Positions 36,293 through 47,350 of a stretch of DNA of 64,000 nucleotides are shown one piece after another; within the stretch, counting starts at the first letter, position 1, and every line of letters starts with the position of its first letter. Under the pieces are notes generated by a model. That model had not been told where the DNA came from and did not search any database. It worked only from the letters and a program-made list of their open reading frames with translations. The position numbers were made by a program, and so were the translations under genes. The stretch covers positions 1,568,001 to 1,632,000 of the forward strand of contig OZ219791.1 of the NCBI GenBank assembly GCA_964291215.2. Direction: 5' to 3'. This DNA comes from Alphaproteobacteria bacterium. Its GTDB lineage: Bacteria > Pseudomonadota > Alphaproteobacteria > MPNO01 > UBA830.

Positions 36293-36630
36293 GTGCAGCG
36301 GTCTAGCTGCTGATCTTGCGGGTGCAAGTCCCGCCGACGCAATTCCCAGTTTGGCACCGTAGCATATCCCACTGGTTCAGGGGTAACCCTAGGCCAGCGA
36401 GCTGGGATGTAGAAGCCGTTGTGGGCTGGCTGGAACACAATGTCCGGCCGGTCTGGTCAGCCAGAGCGGTGAGCGAACCGGAGGGCGAAAGCGAACGATG
36501 AAGCCTCGAAAAGGAAATTCCCACACGAATCTGATTTGTGGGGCAATCGGGAATGCCAAGGGCCTGTCTCCTGCCTAGTGGCTAGTGTCGATGCGGAAGA
36601 GCTGGGTGCGCCAGGCTAGGTTGTGGACTC

Positions 36631-38145
36631 GTAACTGCTCACCCCCTGGTTCCGGCTTGATGTCGGGGTAGAGCAACGAACGGGTTTTCGTGGAGATTTG
36701 ACACTGCATGCCGATTCGCTTAGTGGTGGTCATCGAGAACGACGGGGACCGCCAGTGGGCTACTTTGGATCGAAGGCGACGAGCGGGCTGTGCCAGTTGC
36801 TTCCGGGGCTCCAGCCTCCGCATGATCTGTATGTGGAAACGCATCTCGGAAGCGGCGCGCTGATGAAGCGCAAGGCCGGGTGATGGCGACGGTCAACGCG
36901 GCGCGCGAGGAGTTCGAAGCGGCCAAGACCGCGGCGCTGCCGGCAAGGTGGCGGAAGAGGCCGTGATCCGCGTCCTCGTCATCCTGCTCGACATCCTCAT
37001 CGTCGTCCTTCTGGAGAAGACCACGCACGAGCCGGAACTCCGGTCTGCCGCCGTCACAGACGGACAAGAGCGTGCCGGAAGCAACGGCAAGGGCCCGAAG
37101 CCGAACCGGCAGATGGGCGACAACCTGCGCAAGACCATCGTCGAGGAAACGGTCGCGGCCTGCGACGCCTGCGGCGCCGACGGCCCCGTCGATCGGGAGC
37201 GCCGCACGACATCGTGTTCGAGGTCGTCGAGCGCCGCGTCGACACCGAGGAATGCCCGAAGTGCAAGGGCCGGTTCCCCGACAACATCCCGTGCAGTACG
37301 GCATCGGCATCCAAGCCCTCGTCATCAACCTGCTGGTCGCCCAGATGCTGTCCCTGCGCCGTGCCGTCGCGTTCGTGCAGTCGATCTCCGGCATCAAGCT
37401 CTCCGAGGCAACCTGCCTCGGCTATGCTTTCACGATGCGTCATGGGAGGAGGCCGCCGTGGCGCACCTCCTGCAACGCCCGATGTCGACGATTTCGGATC
37501 AACAGCAAGTGGCTCCATGTCGTGGGACCCTGACGTGCAAGTTCCCGCACCGCAAGCGCGGCCGGGAGGCAAGAGATCGGCCCGTGCTACAAGGGCGTCC
37601 TGGGCCTCGTACATGGGCCAGTGTAGCCACCAGCGGCAGCCACCTGCTGCGCGAACTGACCTTTGTCGTCGAGGCTACCGCGCGACTGATGAAGAGCCTG
37701 TTCCGCGAGGTCTGCCACAAGGTCAACAAGAGCGCATCCAAAACCCTGAACGACGCCGGGCGCAAGCGCTACCGCACCATCAGGGCGCCAGGGAACTGCC
37801 CGATATCCCGACGAAAGGAAAACGTGGACGCAAGTCCGACGCGCACAACCTGCACGAACGTCTCGTGAAACACGAAAACCTGCGCTTCACAGACGACCCC
37901 GACGTCAGCTTCACCAACAATGCCGGAGAACAGAAAATCAGGATGGCAAAGGTCAAGGTGTCCGGATGCTTCCGCACCATGCTCGACGCAAAAGCATGGT
38001 GCCGGGGCTCAAGCTACCTCACCTCCATGGCCGCACTCGGCTACAATCATCACGTTGCCACCCAGATCGCCCTCGACGGAAAAGCCGCAGACATCATCAA
38101 CGAGCACCACGACCAATCAGAACCCAACTAGGGGTGAGTAGATAC
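36631..38145 (+). mobile_element. IS66-family single-transposase (ISBst12-like) element 1 with methyltransferase remnant
   Basis: TIRs gtaactgctcacccc / ggggtgagtagatac; 8-bp TSD gtggactc; PVQYG, HLLREL, DVSFTNNAGEQKIRMAKV. Confidence 0.92.
36755..36883 (+). pseudogene. N-terminal remnant of an adenine DNA methyltransferase
   Basis: VGYFGSKATSGLCQLLPGLQPPHDLYVETHLGSGALMKRK, homologous to 45102-45761. Confidence 0.85.
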
Positions 38146-39953
38146 GTGGACTCAAATAATTGGTTTGCGATTCTGCGGAGCAAGAATCGGCTGGCAGCCA
38201 GTTGCACGGCGGAGAGGAAGTTCCTTGTCATAACGGGTGGCGACTCGTCGGAACTCCTTGATCTTGCCGAAAAACCGCTCGATCAGGTTGCGAATCCTGT
38301 AGATCTCGCGGTCGAGCGGCCGTGGCGATGTCCGGTTGGATTTCATGACCGCGGTTGCTCCTGCCGTCTCGATCAGATGGCGTCGGTGTCGTAGGCCTTG
38401 TCGCCGACCACCGTCTCGCTCGAGGTCGGCGAGAAGCGCCTCCGCCTGCGCGCAGTCGGCCGCTTGGCCCGGGGTCAGGAACACGGTCTTCACCCTCTCG
38501 TTCTCGCCAAGATGGACCTTCGTCGTTCGTCCGCCACGGCCCGATTTGCGAAGGCTCGTCGTCCCGGGACGCCTCAGCTTGTGAACGCGCACCGACAAGG
38601 AGTCGACCATGCGCAGGTGAACCGAGCCGGGCGGGCCATCGTCGCTCCCGTCACCATCGCTCGTAAGCCTTTGAAGCTTCTCCATGCCCAAGTGCCGTTC
38701 TTGCTCCACCGGTTGAAGCGGTTGAAGCAGACGGACCGTAGCGCAGGTCGCGCCACGGCGTACCGGTGCGAAGCACGAAGAATATCCCGTTCATGACCCT
38801 CCGGTCATGCACCCGCTCCGGGCCCTGGTGCTTGTCAGGAAGCACCGAGCGGAGAACTTTTCATTCCGCGTCGCTCATGTCGTGTCGGTCGCCGCTCATC
38901 CTTCACTCTCCTTGTGAATCGCTTTCGACAAGAATAAGGCAGATCATGCAAAATGTCAACATTTGGGTACACAACCTAACTGGTGGAATGTTGCCGGGTG
39001 CAAGTCCCGGCAGGAAGAGAGGCTAACCACCACTTTCTCCGTGAACCATGCGTCGTGAGGCGAAGCGTTGGTGAGCGGCAGGCCGGGCTATTGAGCCACG
39101 AGATTCTGTGAAACCGGAGTGCCGAGGTCGTGGCCGAAGGCAACACCCTGTGTGCCGTATTGGTGAGGCAGACGGGGGCTCCGCGGGGTCTGAGAACCAT
39201 GGCCGAAGCAGGGACCTGGGAGGTCTTTCAATTGTCCCTCTGTCGTGGAGGGGCCGCAGAGGAAAGGAACTAATCCGTAAACCGATGATGAACGAGAAGT
39301 CAGATTCGGCCATAGTACCGTTGAAGGCGGCGAACAAGGGTTCTTCGGAGCCTGCGGAGTTGTTTGAGGGAAGGGCAATGCGGTTGGCCCGCGCCGCGCG
39401 CAGAAGCGGGGGTCACAGGCGGCTGAACGCAGGTAGCGAAGAGGAACCCGGAAGAGCGTCTTTACTCCACCACGTGACGGTCGACATTCTGCACGATGCG
39501 TTCCATTCCTTGAGGAAGGACGCGGCGGCGGGCGTGGACGGCGTTGTGTGGCAAGCGTACGCGGAGGGTTTGGAAGACCGTCTGGTTGACCTGCACGCCC
39601 GTGTGCACAGGGGTGCGTACCGGGCGCCTCCAGGGTCTACATACCCAAGGAGGATGGAGGGCAACGACCGCTTGCCTCGCTGGAGGACAAGATTCTTCAG
39701 CGGGCGGTGTGATTCTGGTGCCGCGAGACGGAGTTCCTCGGGTTCAGTTACGGCTTCCGGCCGGGGCGCACAACGCGCTCGATGCAGTCACGGTGGAACG
39801 GCGGAAGGTCAACTGGATCGTTGACGCCCCTTCGACAACCGCGACCACCTGGTCGCGATGCTCGAGAGACGGATCGGGGGGTCTGATCATCAAGTGACGC
39901 CGGCATCATGGAAGGGACCGACTGGCAAGGGGACACCGCAGGGGGGCGATTGT

Positions 39954-42796: not shown

Positions 42797-43447
42797 CCCG
42801 AAGTTCCAGAAAATTCCGGCTGAAATGCACGTCAAATCATTGATGCAGCGTGGTTTATCGGATTTTTCGTGCGTCATATTGTACCCATGTAATACTGTGT
42901 TGGATGCTTGAGATCCATGAATCTGCCGCCTATATGCAGTAGCCATGTATATCGAATCCATCCCCAACCGCTCGTCCCCGCCCGCCATCCTGCTCCGCGA
43001 GTCCTGTCGCGAAGCCGGAACGGTCAAGAAGCGCACTCTCGCCAACCTTTCCAGGTGGTCGCCCGCTCTCATCGAGGGATTGCGCATTCTGCTCAAGGGA
43101 GGAACCGCAGGTCTCGACGACGCCTCGTCCGCTCTCTTCCCCATGGTCATGTGGCCGCAGTGCTGGGAACCCTGAAGAAACTGGACCGGCGGATCGACAT
43201 GAAGCCTTCTCCCGAGCGCGATCAGGTTCTCGCCATGATCGTGGCACGCATCCTTGAGCCCGCCTCGAAGCTGGCCAGGGGGCTGGCCGAGGCCACCGCG
43301 GTCAGCGCCTTGGGTGAGCTCCTCGATGCGGAGTTGGACGAGAATGCCCTCTACGGCGCCGGCTCCTGGAACGTCAGGAGAGGATTAAGCGATCCCTGGC
43401 GGCACCTCGAAGAAGGCTGTCTGGTGCTGTATGACCTGACTTCAGTG
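42797..43447 (+). mobile_element. IS1634-family element, 5' part, decayed
   Basis: MYIESIPNRSSPPAILLRES, KKRTLANLS, PHGHVAAVLG, PASKL, LVLYDLTS. Confidence 0.88.
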
Positions 43448-43630
43448 GATTACGCAACCTGATGTCTGGAAATTGTCGTGAAGCTCTCAGTCATCGAGCT
43501 GTTCCCATTTGATCTTGGTTTCGGTTTCCCATTTGTAACTGCCCAGGTCTGCTTCCGGCGATCAGCCACGGGTTATGGACTGAATCTTCCGGTCTGCTGC
43601 CGCGGACGCGGAGGCGAGCGGCGGGGGATT

Positions 43631-45033
43631 TCAGAGGCGCAGTCTCGGGATCAGCTGCATGGGATCGGGATGCGCCAGGGTTTCGAGGACATTCCAGCGT
43701 TGCTTTCGGGCTGTTGCGATGACGGAACGCAGGCTGGCGAAGTCGCGGGCGCCTTGCATTGATCGGAAGCCGCCCGAGATTTTCTGGCGCAGCTTGCCCA
43801 TGCGGAGGTCGCGCTCGGCCTGGTTGTTCGAGAAGGGGGTTCTCGGGTCGGTGAGGAAGCGCAGGCAGCCCTCCTTGTATTTCTGGAGCCGGAGGGCGAG
43901 GTTGTGACCGATGCGGCGCTTTTGTCGTCCGTGCTTTCCGCTCTGGAGGGGCGCCATCTCTTCGTGAGAGGCGATGGCCTGCTCAAGGATGCGGTCCCAG
44001 GCTCGGGAGATGCGGGCCACCAGTGAAGCGGGCAGGTCGCGGTCATTCTTGCGGGCGAAGCGGGCGGCTCTGTTGGCACGGCTGAGGAGCGGGTGCGTGG
44101 TGGCTGCCCAGTTCTCGATCTCGATCAGGGCTTGGAGTTCGCGCAGGTGATGGGCATTGCAGGCCCCGTGGCGCACGCCTTGGAGAGCGAAGTAGGTGGC
44201 GTAGTCGTCATGGATGACGATGCCGTTGAGCTTCTCGTCGATGTGGCTGCGCCCGGCGGCGATGCGCAGGATGGTCAGCAACGGGGTGCACAGTACGTGG
44301 AGCCATTGGGTCCGGGCGGCGATGCGGATGCCGGTCTCGTCGAGGTGTTTGACCGGGGCCGCGGTGCGGATGATCTCGCCGACACGGTCGAGGAAGCCCT
44401 CGAAGCGCCGGGCGGTGCGTCTGCCCATGGCGGCGATGGTGGCGGTTGAGAGCCTGACCGCGAAGAGGTCGCTCATGACTTCGGCGACGCGCTTCTCCGG
44501 AATGAACTGCGCGTGCAGCAGGTAGGTCACCCACGCGGTGATACGCGGCCCGTACTGGACCGGGGCGCCGTTCGGGAAGACGGCTGTCGTCACGGTGCCG
44601 CAGGCGGCACAGAGGCAGCGGTGCTCGGTGACCTGCGGTTCGGGCACATCGAAGACCTGCCGGCAGACGGGGGCTCGGTGACGCTCAGCGGCCGACAGCG
44701 GCGCGCCGCAGCCCGCACAGGCGCAGGGATCATGATCGACGACGTGGTCGGGCGTCGCGGTCCGCTCCAGAGTGGTTCCCTTGTGGCTGGCCGCCGCCTG
44801 TCGGACGTGCCGCTCCGGGTGCGCTGGGGTCCGCTCTTCTTCTTCAGACCGTCGCTGGCCGGCGACCGGGAGCTGGTGGTGCTGTCGAGCGCGGCACTGC
44901 GCTCGAGTTCGGCAATCCGCTCGCGCAAGTGGGCGTTCTCCCGCTCCAGCGCGTCGTTCTCCCTGACCAGCGCCGCGCTCAGGCGCAGCAGCCCCTGGCC
45001 CGGATGGCTTTGATGACCGTCATCGCCAGGCAT
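43631..45033 (-). pseudogene. IS66-family transposase with frameshifts and small deletions
   Basis: LDSTTSSRSPASDG, APVQYGPRI, HLDETG, CNAHHLREL, FSNNQAERDLRMGKLRQKISGGFRS. Confidence 0.9.
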
Positions 45034-45101
45034 TGTGGGGTGAAAAGGTCCTGCAGGCACGCAAAAGCCTCGTCGTGGCCGGCGAGGTCCTCGCGCCACC
45101 G

Positions 45102-45761
45102 TCACGGGACCTCGACGGCCATGATCGCGGCCAGCACCGCCAGGCGTTCGCCCGCCGGCATGGCCTCGTAGAGCCGGCCCCAGTTGGCCGCCTTGCGCTT
45201 GATGCGCTGGCGGTCGGTGAAGTTCCGGCCGGCGAAGCGCGCCCAGTGCACCCGGTCGGGCGCGAAGTTGAACCACACCACCTCGGTCCGCACCCGGGCC
45301 TGGGTCGTCACCTGCAGCGCCAGCCGGCGCCAGCCCGACAGCAGGTCGTCATAGAGCGCAGACGGGTGGCCCGAGACCATCACCTGGCAGGGCAGACCCT
45401 TGAGCAGCTCAAGCAGCGCGACGTGGTCGGCCTCCGCATACTCGAAGCGGTAGCGCTGCGACGAACGCCGGGTCGCGTGCAGATAGGGCGGATCGCTGTA
45501 GACCAGCTCCGGGCCCAGAAACGCAAACGACGCCAGAAAGGAGTGGGCGCAGCCATGCACCAACTCCACCGGGTAGTCGCAGCCAAAGGCCTCAAGCGCC
45601 CGCTCATCGAGGTCGATCCCGATCGAGCGCACGGCAGCAGGCTTGCGCTTCATCAGCGCACCGCCCCCCAGGTGACTCTCGATATAGACAGAGTGCGGCG
45701 GCATCAGCGCAATCAGCGCCTGGCTCAGACCCGTCGTCGCCTTCGATCCGAAATACCCCAC
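45102..45761 (-). CDS. D12/Dam-class N6-adenine DNA methyltransferase, apparently intact
   Basis: GTG start after RBS gggaggag; YFGSK, YIESHLGGGA (motif I), GIDLD, YSDPPY (motif IV), VMVSG, TEVVWFNF. Confidence 0.9.
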   Translation of the reverse strand: MGYFGSKATTGLSQALIALMPPHSVYIESHLGGGALMKRKPAAVRSIGIDLDERALEAFGCDYPVELVHGCAHSFLASFAFLGPELVYSDPPYLHATRRSSQRYRFEYAEADHVALLELLKGLPCQVMVSGHPSALYDDLLSGWRRLALQVTTQARVRTEVVWFNFAPDRVHWARFAGRNFTDRQRIKRKAANWGRLYEAMPAGERLAVLAAIMAVEVP

Positions 45762-46231
45762 CAGCCGCTCCTCCCATGCGAGAGGGCAACCCATAGGCGC
45801 GCGCGCCTATGCAGTCAAGGCCGAGAGCAGCGACACGGCGAACAAAATCAGCAAGCTCTCACACTTGGCAGGGTACCTGGGTAGTTACTCCCATTTTTCG
45901 TCGATGAGGACCGCGGTTAAGAGGCGCTCCAACGAGGCGAGGTTCGGAAAGACCCTGACTTTGGAGGTGCGCCGCTTGAGCTCTTGCTGGATCGGCCGCT
46001 CGATACCGTTCGAGGTTCGCATGCGCTTGCGGTGAGCATCGGGCAAGGTGAAGACAGCGAGCCCCGCATTCTTTTCCAGCCAGGAAGCTTGGATGCTTGT
46101 CGCGATAGCTGGCCACGAGGGCGCCCAGTTCAGCCTCGGCGGTTTGGAGTGAGGAGGCGTTCCAGACGGTTCCGAGCTGTTTTCCAATACGTTTCCTGAT
46201 GTCGTTGTTCGGTGCACGGCGTTTTGCGCTA

Positions 46232-47350
46232 GTGTCTTGTCATTCGTCAAATATCGGATAAAGGCGTTTGAGTTTCACGCGGGCATCGTCGGTGGTGAAC
46301 TGCCAATCCACCTTGGCCTGGATGCGGTCGCCTGCCAAGCGGCAACTTCCCGGCGTAGCACCTCGATGCAGTCGATGCGGCGGTTCAGGCGGATCATGAC
46401 GTTGAGTTCCACCACGTTCAGCCAACTGCCATGCTTGGGGGTGTAGACGAACTCGAAGCGGTCCCACAGGGCCTTGGCCTCGTCCGGCGGGTAGGCCTCG
46501 TAGAGGGCGCCGGGGAGTGTTGAGATTGTCCATCACCAGGGTGATGGTGGTGGCATCTTGGTAGCGCCCGGCGATGTCGGCCAGGAACTGCGCCCAATCG
46601 ATCTTGCGCTCGGTTACCTTGGTCATGCGCTTGCCGGCCAGGGGTTCCATGAAGACGTTGCAGGTACCGCAACGTCGATACTCGTAGTCGTTACGCGCTG
46701 GCTGTCCCGGCGCCATGGCGATCGGTTGCCGTGTCTCGCCGGTCGGGGCGTTTCGTCCATGCAGACCACGGGGAAAGCGGCGGGACGGCGATCGAGTACC
46801 TTCGCTGCGGCGAAGTCGGCGTTCCCTTGAGGAGGAATCACCCACCCGCTGCCATGGCTTGAGGCAGTTTTTTTAGAACACGCCGCACCGTCTCGTGTGA
46901 CACGGTGTAACCAAGCTCGACAACGCGGTCGGCCAGCAGCCGCAACGACCATTGCGCGTAACCCTCAGGCGGTTCACCACAACTCAGGGCCACCAAGCGC
47001 GCCTCGAAGACGCCGTCGGCTTTTCGCATGTAGGTAGGACGGCGTCCTTGCCGGCCACCCAATGCCGCCTCCAACCCCTCGAAACGCTTCTTTACTCGGT
47101 CTACTTTGCGCATGCTGATGCGCAGAATCTCAGCAATGACCTTCCCAGTCATCTGGCATTCATTGAACGCGCTCTCGTCGCAGTTAAGCAGGGCGTTGAT
47201 TACCTTTTGCGACAGGTGCGAGCCCTTGATCTCCGAAAGTTCTGCCCGTTCGTCCAGGGTCACCACGTAGCGTTTCATACTCCGACCTCCATCCCGAATG
47301 GACGGACAGTCTAGCACCAAATGTACGACATATCATTGCTGACATAACAC
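46232..47350 (-). mobile_element. IS630-family element, decayed
   Basis: TIRs gtgtcttgtca / rc gtgttatgtca, TA duplicated; WSLRLLADR, VVCMDETP, DYEYRRCGT, LVMDNLNT. Confidence 0.9.

Follow-up and report, generated by a model that had tools for sequence, protein, structure and literature searches.

A Dam-like gene joined to the transposase gene of IS66-family elements, a candidate autoregulator of transposition

Element 1 and its Dam-like gene

The window analysed here is the whole stretch of 64,000 nucleotides (nt) from an Alphaproteobacteria bacterium (contig OZ219791.1, positions 1,568,001 to 1,632,000), and positions are counted within it. It contains two insertion sequence (IS) elements, and the subject of this report is the gene with a Dam-like methyltransferase fold that element 1 carries upstream of its IS66 transposase gene (tnpC). 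Element 1 is an IS66-family element of 2,354 bp (43535-45888), in which all genes lie on the minus strand in the order end, promoter, methylase-like gene, transposase, end. Element 2 (36631-38145) belongs to a second IS66 lineage, here called type B. The original prediction, made from the letters of the sequence, had drawn terminal inverted repeats and 8-bp target-site duplications around both elements, and these ends and duplications are confirmed. The features of element 1 are as follows.

43527..43534 and 45889..45896, direct repeat: 8-bp target-site duplication TCCCATTT
43535..43548, plus strand: transposase-distal terminal inverted repeat GTAACTGCCCAGGT, the same in 9 of 9 copies
43631..44785, minus strand: C-terminal part of tnpC (zinc-finger region and DDE domain; PF03050, NF033517), in a frame different from that of the N-terminal part
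44786..44800, minus strand: site of the tnpC frame split, an uncompensated 10-nt deficit (two 5-nt deletions) found by alignment with intact relatives
44801..45105, minus strand: N-terminal part of tnpC with a leucine-zipper-like DUF6444 region (PF20042, E 3.5e-6), GTG start at 45105-45103
45102..45761, minus strand: Dam-like methyltransferase-fold gene of the Upf31 family, 219 codons, with DPPY, no target-recognition domain and a basic helical C-terminus
45792..45811, minus strand: dyad CATAG-N10-CTATG, a candidate operator that spans the predicted promoter's spacer and -10 region
45813..45818, minus strand: TTGACT, read from the sequence as -35 box of the promoter predicted for the cassette, with TTGAC conserved
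45875..45888, minus strand: methylase-proximal terminal inverted repeat, GTAACTACCCAGGT on the minus strand

Terminal inverted repeats beginning GTAA and an 8-bp duplication are the norm of the IS66 family, and element 1 has both. Its inverted ends, GTAACTGCCCAGGT and ACCTGGGTAGTTAC, are 14 nt long and complementary at 13 of 14 positions (93%). A third TCCCATTT at 43503 is a chance occurrence within the target DNA. The source genome (two contigs, 6.15 Mb) contains nine full-length copies of element 1 with 97-100% identity, in addition to interrupted copies. Perfect 8-bp repeats border eight of the nine full copies, and both the repeats and the flanking DNA differ from copy to copy. Moreover, when element 1 and one repeat are excised in silico, a Mutator/IS256-type transposase remnant regains its C-terminal frame. 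Together, the ends, the duplications, the copies in different flanks and the excision establish that element 1 is real and was recently mobile.

The methylase-like gene most likely starts at the GTG at 45761, which follows a GGAGG. The resulting 219 codons agree with the length of the relatives (219-222 amino acids), and the ATG of the listed open reading frame (ORF; 45794..45102) sits within the predicted -10 region. As had been described, the gene is located inside the IS ends, encodes DPPY and S-adenosylmethionine (SAM)-binding motifs and a basic C-terminal tail, and has no partner restriction gene. Its profile matches to the Dam family fall below the cut-offs, with E 0.04 for PF02086 (14.1 bits against 22) and E 1.6e-5 for TIGR00571 (24.8 bits against 114.85). 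Among 14 aligned family members, 8 match PF02086 at E <= 0.01.

An AlphaFold model of the protein (predicted local distance difference test score 77.5) was compared with 48,161 solved chains by VIA-align. The best match is DpnM (Z 16.0, root-mean-square deviation 2.6, 147 of 258 residues aligned), followed by E. coli Dam (15.6), Mcbe1 (15.3) and T4 Dam (14.7), and unrelated methyltransferases reach at most 13.5. Foldseek alone ranked generic methyltransferases alongside Dam, whereas VIA-align set the Dam family apart. The alignment comprises only the catalytic core (model residues 17-179). With GGG (43-45) and DPPY (101-104) only about 55 residues apart, the model indicates a protein that retains the catalytic core of Dam and DpnM and lacks the Dam target-recognition domain. 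The core is followed by three Arg/Lys-rich helices (model residues 181-228), which form the basic tail and are nearly invariant. In a profile search of solved structures, TPR-like repeat proteins came out on top (E 5.7e-5) with DpnM in third place; the former were rejected as spurious repeat matches.

DPPY, GGG and D61 are invariant across 14 sequences, and the ratio of nonsynonymous to synonymous substitution rates (dN/dS) is 0.23-0.29 in 11 pairs. The methylase-like gene is under purifying selection. The protein is homologous over its full length to Upf31 of plasmid pBP136 (43% identity, E 8e-63, residues 14-228 against 3-221), for which we took the 675-bp coding sequence (CDS) at L131:25336, chosen by its length and its position between the trb and tra regions.

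In element 1, the GTG start of tnpC overlaps the TGA stop of the methylase-like gene, forming GTGA. The same arrangement is found in 12 of 12 junctions examined, where a GTG or ATG start overlaps the TGA stop as GTGA, ATGA or TGATG. The overlapping start reads into the transposase in 11 of them, including L106, which has a transposase of the IS701 family. In the other IS701-linked locus, L097, the overlapping GTG is out of frame with the IS701 ORF.

Distribution of the cassette and its promoter dyad

A word-index search identifies 3,761 proteins of the Dam-like family at E <= 0.001, and the 120 best of these matches are 69-93% identical and 187-264 amino acids long. The genome collection comprises 76 loci from 15 assemblies, many of them copies within one assembly and hence not independent, labelled as Alphaproteobacteria, Rhodobacterales, Paracoccaceae, Dehalococcoidia, Binatia and Tectimicrobiota. 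An IS66 tnpC lies directly 3' of the gene on the same strand in 73 of the 76, counting L078, where a 35-residue tnpC stub is followed by another insertion. As for the other three, L090 has an IS21-like insertion right after the Dam-like gene, and L097 and L106 carry the IS701-family transposase instead (PF13546 in both, NF049999 with E 7.6e-95 in L106). The metagenome collection contains 80 loci, of which 70 are evaluable, as nine have less than 700 bp downstream and one runs off the contig. Sixty-two of these have an IS66 tnpC, one an IS701-like transposase and one a weak IS4-like match. In total, the cassette precedes an IS701-type transposase in three loci (L097, L106 and L177). These counts bear out the predicted recurrence of a methylase-transposase module, and the pairing is common in environmental bacteria.

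More distant relatives have other surroundings. In an even sample of 400 genomes of the source phylum, two contain a full-length relative, both in a chromosomal island and not in an IS. In PLSDB, 196 plasmids (134 typed as conjugative) carry relatives as stand-alone genes of 43-55% identity, all below 60%. Two of these plasmids, inspected over 5-kb flanks, have a stand-alone 'DNA adenine methylase' with no transposase directly downstream. Because of these stand-alone relatives on plasmids and in chromosomal islands, the Dam-like family is not specific to IS66 and belongs to mobile DNA generally. The expectation that homologues lie within IS66 ends therefore holds for the clade of about 64-93% identity, which resides mostly in IS elements, and not for the plasmid-borne relatives.

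The chromosomal relatives (L127 3142-4718, L128 3813-5335 and L205 3164-4027) overlap a 257-residue ORF, which, as named from sequence reading, resembles a helix-hairpin-helix DNA glycosylase. ORFs resembling a QueC-type PP-loop protein, a nitroreductase and a sugar-kinase/deoxyribosyltransferase fusion, named in the same way, are located nearby. This neighbourhood may represent a DNA-modification or defence island.

The original prediction had also suggested that methylase and transposase might share a phylogeny, and this fails. Methylase genes that stand beside transposases of only about 30% identity, or beside IS701 transposases, are themselves 75-83% identical (synonymous divergence, dS, 0.46-0.67). 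Divergence is thus much lower among the methylase genes than among the adjacent transposases, so that the cassette has been exchanged between elements far more recently than the transposases diverged, and the two are not a co-evolving pair. Between the IS66- and IS701-linked versions, similarity runs from the TTGAC box to the stop codon.

The upstream region within this unit has the conserved pattern TTGAC-N2-YATAG-N10-CTATR, in which the right arm of the dyad makes up the -10 region; the 10 nt between the arms are freely variable. The dyad YATAG-N10-CTATR is present upstream of 62 of the 76 genome loci, compared with 4 background matches in 588 kb of flanks, and of 52 of 76 evaluable metagenome loci. 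It is also found in four of seven plasmid genes whose products have the same GYxGSK N-terminus, and occurs in tandem (twice) in three of these, from X. oryzae, Photobacterium and Shewanella. In two loci the arms read GTAG...CTAC, a symmetric change of both. Of 13 matches to CATAG-N10-CTATG across the 6.15-Mb source genome, 12 fall within element 1 copies. The leader at 45748-45797 (minus strand) and its homologues can also form a hairpin in which Shine-Dalgarno sequence and start codon are paired, with single-sequence folds of -13.8 to -27.1 kcal/mol.

Upf31-type genes, which encode an RYPGGKG N-terminus, have another dyad at the same place of the promoter, CATCGYCA-TTTC-TGACGATG. It is carried by pBP136, two further IncP plasmids, a Synechocystis plasmid and two chromosomal copies. 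As read from these sequences, the two putative operator classes track the N-terminal type of the protein. The second dyad overlaps a TTGACA box (at 25270-25300 of L131, which is pBP136, and in the upstream regions of L138, L139, L137, L127 and L128). In pBP136 it lies inside the approximately 68 bp upstream of the CDS, a length equal to that of the promoter for which Elg et al. demonstrated autorepression, and is a candidate operator of Upf31.

Broken transposases and deletion forms in the source genome

The element 1 transposase is a clear member of the IS66 family (DDE_Tnp_IS66, PF03050, E 1.4e-38; NCBIfam transpos_IS66, NF033517, E 4.5e-69, 233 bits against a cut-off of 180). In its relatives L031, L033, L049, L051, L076 and L079, tnpC is one continuous ORF of 540-597 codons from stop to stop. 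Alignment with the first five of these intact genes demonstrates that the 5' third of the element 1 tnpC is missing 8, 7, 6, 6, 5, 5, 9 and 9 nt. The 8- and 7-nt losses offset each other and the two 5-nt losses are uncompensated; therefore the N-terminal part and the zinc-finger/DDE part are out of frame in all nine copies. Programmed frameshifting was considered as an explanation of the split gene and is unsupported, as no slippery heptamer was seen at 44786-44800 and the ORF of the relatives is continuous.

The deletions are also covered by contigs from public runs. Contigs of runs X1 and X2 have the deleted form of tnpC. A contig of X3, a third run with the same organism label (488 nt, two other letters differing), has insertions of 9, 3+6 and 5 nt, which sit at the deletion sites of element 1, including a 5-nt insertion at 44784, and is otherwise about 99.5% identical. 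Insertions of 7 and 8 nt at matching places are found on other X3 contigs and one X5 contig. Because these contigs fill the places of the deletions, the tnpC deletions are genuine and recent, and an undeleted version exists elsewhere.

No IS66 tnpC ORF in the source genome aligns over more than 425 residues, despite more than 100 IS66-derived copies. The transposase genes of elements 1 and 2 are both broken in this genome, and tnpC is broken in every copy. For the roughly ten near-identical copies (99.5-100%) with a broken tnpC, mobilisation in trans is our simplest guess. The Dam-like ORF is complete in 10 loci (at least 99% identical to that of the window), though the transposase is broken in all copies.

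Element 2 is a derivative of the second lineage, with the following features.

36623..36630 and 38146..38153: 8-bp target-site duplication GTGGACTC
36631..38145, plus strand: element 2, a non-autonomous derivative of the type-B IS66 lineage, with ends GTAACTGCTCACCCC and GTATCTACTCACCCC
36755..36883, plus strand: mini-ORF of 42 codons, a relic of the methylase-like gene identified by alignment with the full-length copy v75b
36883..38131, plus strand: heavily frameshifted remains of tnpC, one fragment of which matches PF03050 (E 0.0011)

A methylase had been assigned to both elements. This stands for element 1, with its gene of 219 codons, while element 2 retains only the 42-codon relic. Compared with v75b, a full-length methylase gene of the same lineage at C2:872161-872811, element 2 has a clean in-frame deletion of 531 bp (177 codons). 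The original start and stop are retained, and the stop overlaps the tnpC start as TGATG. The predicted homology of the methylase N-termini is confirmed and extended, as full-length type-B copies elsewhere in the genome encode proteins 75% identical to that of element 1. The transposases of types A (element 1) and B are indeed clearly different, with about 30-32% identity.

The short form of element 2 is present in 100 end-to-end genomic copies. The 8-bp duplication is perfect in 71 of these, and an intact tnpC was found in none of the 100. Because the majority consensus of the family is itself frameshifted many times in tnpC, the family spread as a non-autonomous element. The burst of copies without a methylase was considered as evidence for a brake role of the gene and rejected as such, since the frameshifted consensus implies non-autonomous spread. 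By tblastn, about 166 loci of the source genome contain an N-terminal methylase relic only, and 15 matches span at least 181 query residues, 10 of these being element 1 copies. Both IS66 lineages are relics in this genome, the second having spread mostly in the gene-less, in-frame-deleted form.

A second, independent in-frame deletion is present in a type-A relative of element 1 at C2:~731380-733200 (82% identical). Here about 190 codons of the Dam-like gene have been removed, leaving a mini-ORF of about 30 codons in which the start, the stop and the GTGA overlap are kept. Both independent deletions (2 of 2) are thus in frame, for which the chance is 1 in 9. These forms would fit a dependence of tnpC translation on translation of the upstream ORF.

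Several further observations concern the copies and the surroundings of element 1. Two alleles exist, of 2,354 and 2,357 bp, which differ by a 3-nt indel and 4 substitutions within 9 nt of tnpC (44634-44642). The short allele occurs in two copies and the 2,357-bp allele in six, and one copy of the long allele measures 2,302 bp owing to a 55-bp internal deletion. The eight small tnpC deletions (5-9 nt, at 44590-45105) are common to all element 1 copies and come almost without substitutions. Element 2 copies likewise differ chiefly by small indels, with lengths of 1425-1650. These small deletions and indels suggest a strongly deletion-biased mutation spectrum in this genome. Element 1 is surrounded by a nest of IS remnants (45885-47320), including the Mutator/IS256-type transposase tail (PF00872, E 1e-11). 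Adjoining this tail is an IS630-like ORF pair, with DDE_3 slightly under the cut-off and HTH_32 at E 7e-13.

Proposed function and comparison with known systems

The sole family member that has been studied is Upf31. It gives no GATC methylation and no kinetic signal on sequencing by the single-molecule real-time (SMRT) approach (Elg et al. 2025, PMC11997246). It represses its own 68-bp promoter region, lowering expression from 4.76 to 0.09 XylE units, and its C-terminal domain is essential for the phenotype and predicted to contact KorB (PMC11997246).

From this experiment, together with the conserved, nearly private dyad and the coupling to tnpC, we infer autorepression. In our reading, to which we give a probability of roughly 0.5, the Dam-like gene would be an autoregulator that throttles its own expression and that of the transposase, rather than a general DNA methylase. 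The protein would bind the promoter dyad, probably via its basic C-terminal helices, and in its bound state would shut off the single promoter of the methylase-like gene and the transposase gene. The shut-off would lower synthesis of the translationally coupled transposase, resulting in negative feedback on transposition. Because the SAM-binding and DPPY motifs are invariant, the switch may involve binding of SAM or a methyl transfer to the dyad itself. Among the three functions originally offered for the gene, regulation of transposition is the one that its anatomy favours.

Several points weigh against this reading. A sigma-70 consensus scan of 43400-46000 under E. coli rules calls no promoter, and the -10 sequence TATGGG fits only a rhizobial-type consensus. 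In the genome collection 14 of the 76 loci lack the strict dyad, in the metagenome collection 24 of 76, and the dyad is degenerate in this genome's type-B lineage, to which element 2 belongs. At some loci only one arm is changed, the right arm being altered without a matching change in the left, and the -10 box alone may account for part of the 'dyad'. Support for the leader hairpin is too weak for a claim, with an alignment fold of only -7.9 kcal/mol and compensatory changes in 2 of 13 pairs. By a simple rule, the simple stop/start overlap is found in only 15 of 79 metagenome junctions, and at 6 of the 70 evaluable loci from metagenomes the gene lacks a neighbouring transposase. The proposed function would be carried over from one plasmid homologue that is 43% identical and has a different operator sequence. 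Finally, invariant DPPY and SAM-binding motifs would be superfluous in a protein that only represses.

This last point is met by a self-directed epigenetic switch, which we regard as possible though doubtful. Here the protein would be an active N6-adenine methyltransferase that targets only the adenines of its own promoter dyad, and the methylation state of the dyad (full, hemi or none) would set promoter activity and tie transposase synthesis to replication. The invariance of DPPY and of the SAM-binding residues under purifying selection agrees with such a switch, as do the adenines in both arms of the dyad, its overlap with the -10 region and its near confinement to element 1 copies, which hold 12 of the 13 sites of the 6.15-Mb genome. 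In contrast, the protein has no target-recognition domain, and no methylation was detected for Upf31 (PMC11997246). Because the dyad is nearly confined to the element, a SMRT motif search of the Upf31 kind would miss a target present once or twice.

Another explanation is that the gene is cargo, an orphan methyltransferase that methylates many sites for restriction protection or methylome change and has no part in transposase regulation. Stand-alone homologues on 196 plasmids, 134 of them conjugative, where anti-restriction functions are common, would be in line with this, as would the annotation of homologues as 'DNA adenine methylase' and the conserved catalytic motifs. Yet the target-recognition domain of about 100 residues that Dam, DpnM and T4 Dam possess is missing, and Upf31 gave no methylation (PMC11997246). 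The gene is tied to the transposase by the stop/start overlap and the shared promoter, and the deletion derivatives preserve the reading frame, not the enzyme. Moreover, restriction protection is useless to an IS that stays within one genome. We consider cargo of this kind unlikely, and the same applies to general methylation as restriction shielding or methylome rewriting, two suggested roles that find no support here.

The in-frame deletions raise the alternative that the IS merely needs a translated ORF ending on the tnpC start, with the protein as a selfish or neutral rider. Both independent deletions (177 and about 190 codons) kept frame, start, stop and overlap, and the protein-less form reached at least 100 copies. 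This short form, however, has a broken consensus tnpC and spread non-autonomously, so that it says little about a need in cis, and the protein itself is evidently selected, with a dN/dS of 0.23-0.29 over its whole length and identities of 64-93% across phyla. A purely translational leader is thus improbable. A direct partnership, in which the C-terminal helices bind the transposase and inhibit or target it, is the least credible of these explanations: the helices are highly conserved in the IS-borne family and the C-terminal domain of Upf31 is essential and predicted to contact KorB (PMC11997246), but one cassette serves unrelated transposases (IS66 types A and B and IS701), which argues against a single specific interface.

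Going beyond the autoregulator reading, we tentatively put forward, as a rather speculative extension, that a stripped-down Dam with its own dyad promoter constitutes a portable 'transposition governor'. Such a unit would have been swapped by two IS66 lineages and IS701, with the transposase placed on its stop codon, and its protein would read or methylate its own dyad only. If so, each element would own a private circuit, epigenetic or repressor-based, by which its copy number is limited independently of the Dam or CcrM of the host. To our knowledge, the self-control of IS66-family elements is poorly understood. A conserved, selected, transposase-coupled accessory gene that is shared as a cassette between IS families would be a regulator of a new type, built into the IS. 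The large 'DNA adenine methylase' family (the 3,761 matches), whose studied member altered plasmid regulation instead of methylating DNA, would thereby gain a function. Should the protein methylate its own operator, element 1 and its relatives would be the first transposons known with a Dam-like epigenetic switch of their own.

The window and its genome contribute a pair of in-frame deletion forms, an expansion to at least 100 gene-less copies, the complete Dam-like ORF beside a broken tnpC, the dyad that is nearly exclusive to the element in its genome and the two operator classes. The natural deletion forms, in frame and with the coupling preserved, point at experiments on the function of the gene. 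No published description of the layout of an IS66 element with a Dam-like gene was found in the accessible literature, which leaves out most subscription journals as well as ISfinder and TnPedia, and a catalogued member of this layout is possible.

Among known systems, Upf31 of the IncP-1beta plasmids pBP136 and R751 is similar to the element 1 protein over its full length (43% identity, 224 against 219 amino acids). The two proteins are alike in their Dam-like core and helical C-terminal domain, and both genes have a dyad within a TTGAC promoter. They differ in that upf31 is a stand-alone plasmid gene, whereas the IS-borne genes are coupled to a transposase, and in that Upf31 has its own dyad, CATCGYCA-TTTC-TGACGAKR, and a predicted partner, KorB, without counterpart in the IS. 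With DpnM, E. coli Dam and T4 Dam, the protein shares the catalytic Rossmann core (Z 14.7-16.0), and with the Dam family (D12 class) the order of motif I (GGG) before motif IV (DPPY) and the N-terminal GxK. It departs from this family in that 138-147 of 241-258 chain residues align, the target-recognition domain is absent and the Pfam and TIGRFAM scores are below the cut-offs. In addition, no GATC activity was seen for the studied homologue Upf31 (PMC11997246).

As an IS, element 1 is closest to the ISBst12 group in transposase, ends and duplication. ISDge4 of this group has ends GTAACTGCTCAGCA, an 8-bp repeat and a single ORF (PMC12898284). The ends of element 1 begin GTAACTGCTCA and GTAACTACCCA, comparable with GTAACTGCTCAGCA as given there (PMC12898284). 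Element 1 also shares with ISBst12 and ISDge4 a single TnpC-type DDE transposase, the lack of tnpA/tnpB and the 8-bp duplication. Its ends and transposase thus fit the group, whereas its gene content, a Dam-like gene and tnpC, does not agree with the single ORF of the described members: a 219-codon gene with its own promoter is added between the end and tnpC. Element 1 itself has no intact autonomous transposase, whereas its relatives in other assemblies do. Because the Dam-like gene is the sole ORF upstream of tnpC, these elements fall into an IS66 subgroup without tnpA and tnpB.

Canonical IS66 (tnpA-tnpB-tnpC) has a transposase of the same family and the 8-bp duplication. There, too, overlapping stop and start codons link the ORFs upstream of tnpC. 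The Dam-like gene, in contrast, is homologous to neither tnpA nor tnpB, and there is one upstream gene, not two. By analogy only, the proposed regulation resembles that of IS10 and IS50, in which transposition is limited by the host Dam acting at GATC of the transposase promoter. In both cases, a methylase-type factor at the transposase promoter limits, or would limit, transposition. The factor is the host methylase with its GATC site in IS10 and IS50, whereas in element 1 it would be encoded by the element and act at the candidate dyad of its own.

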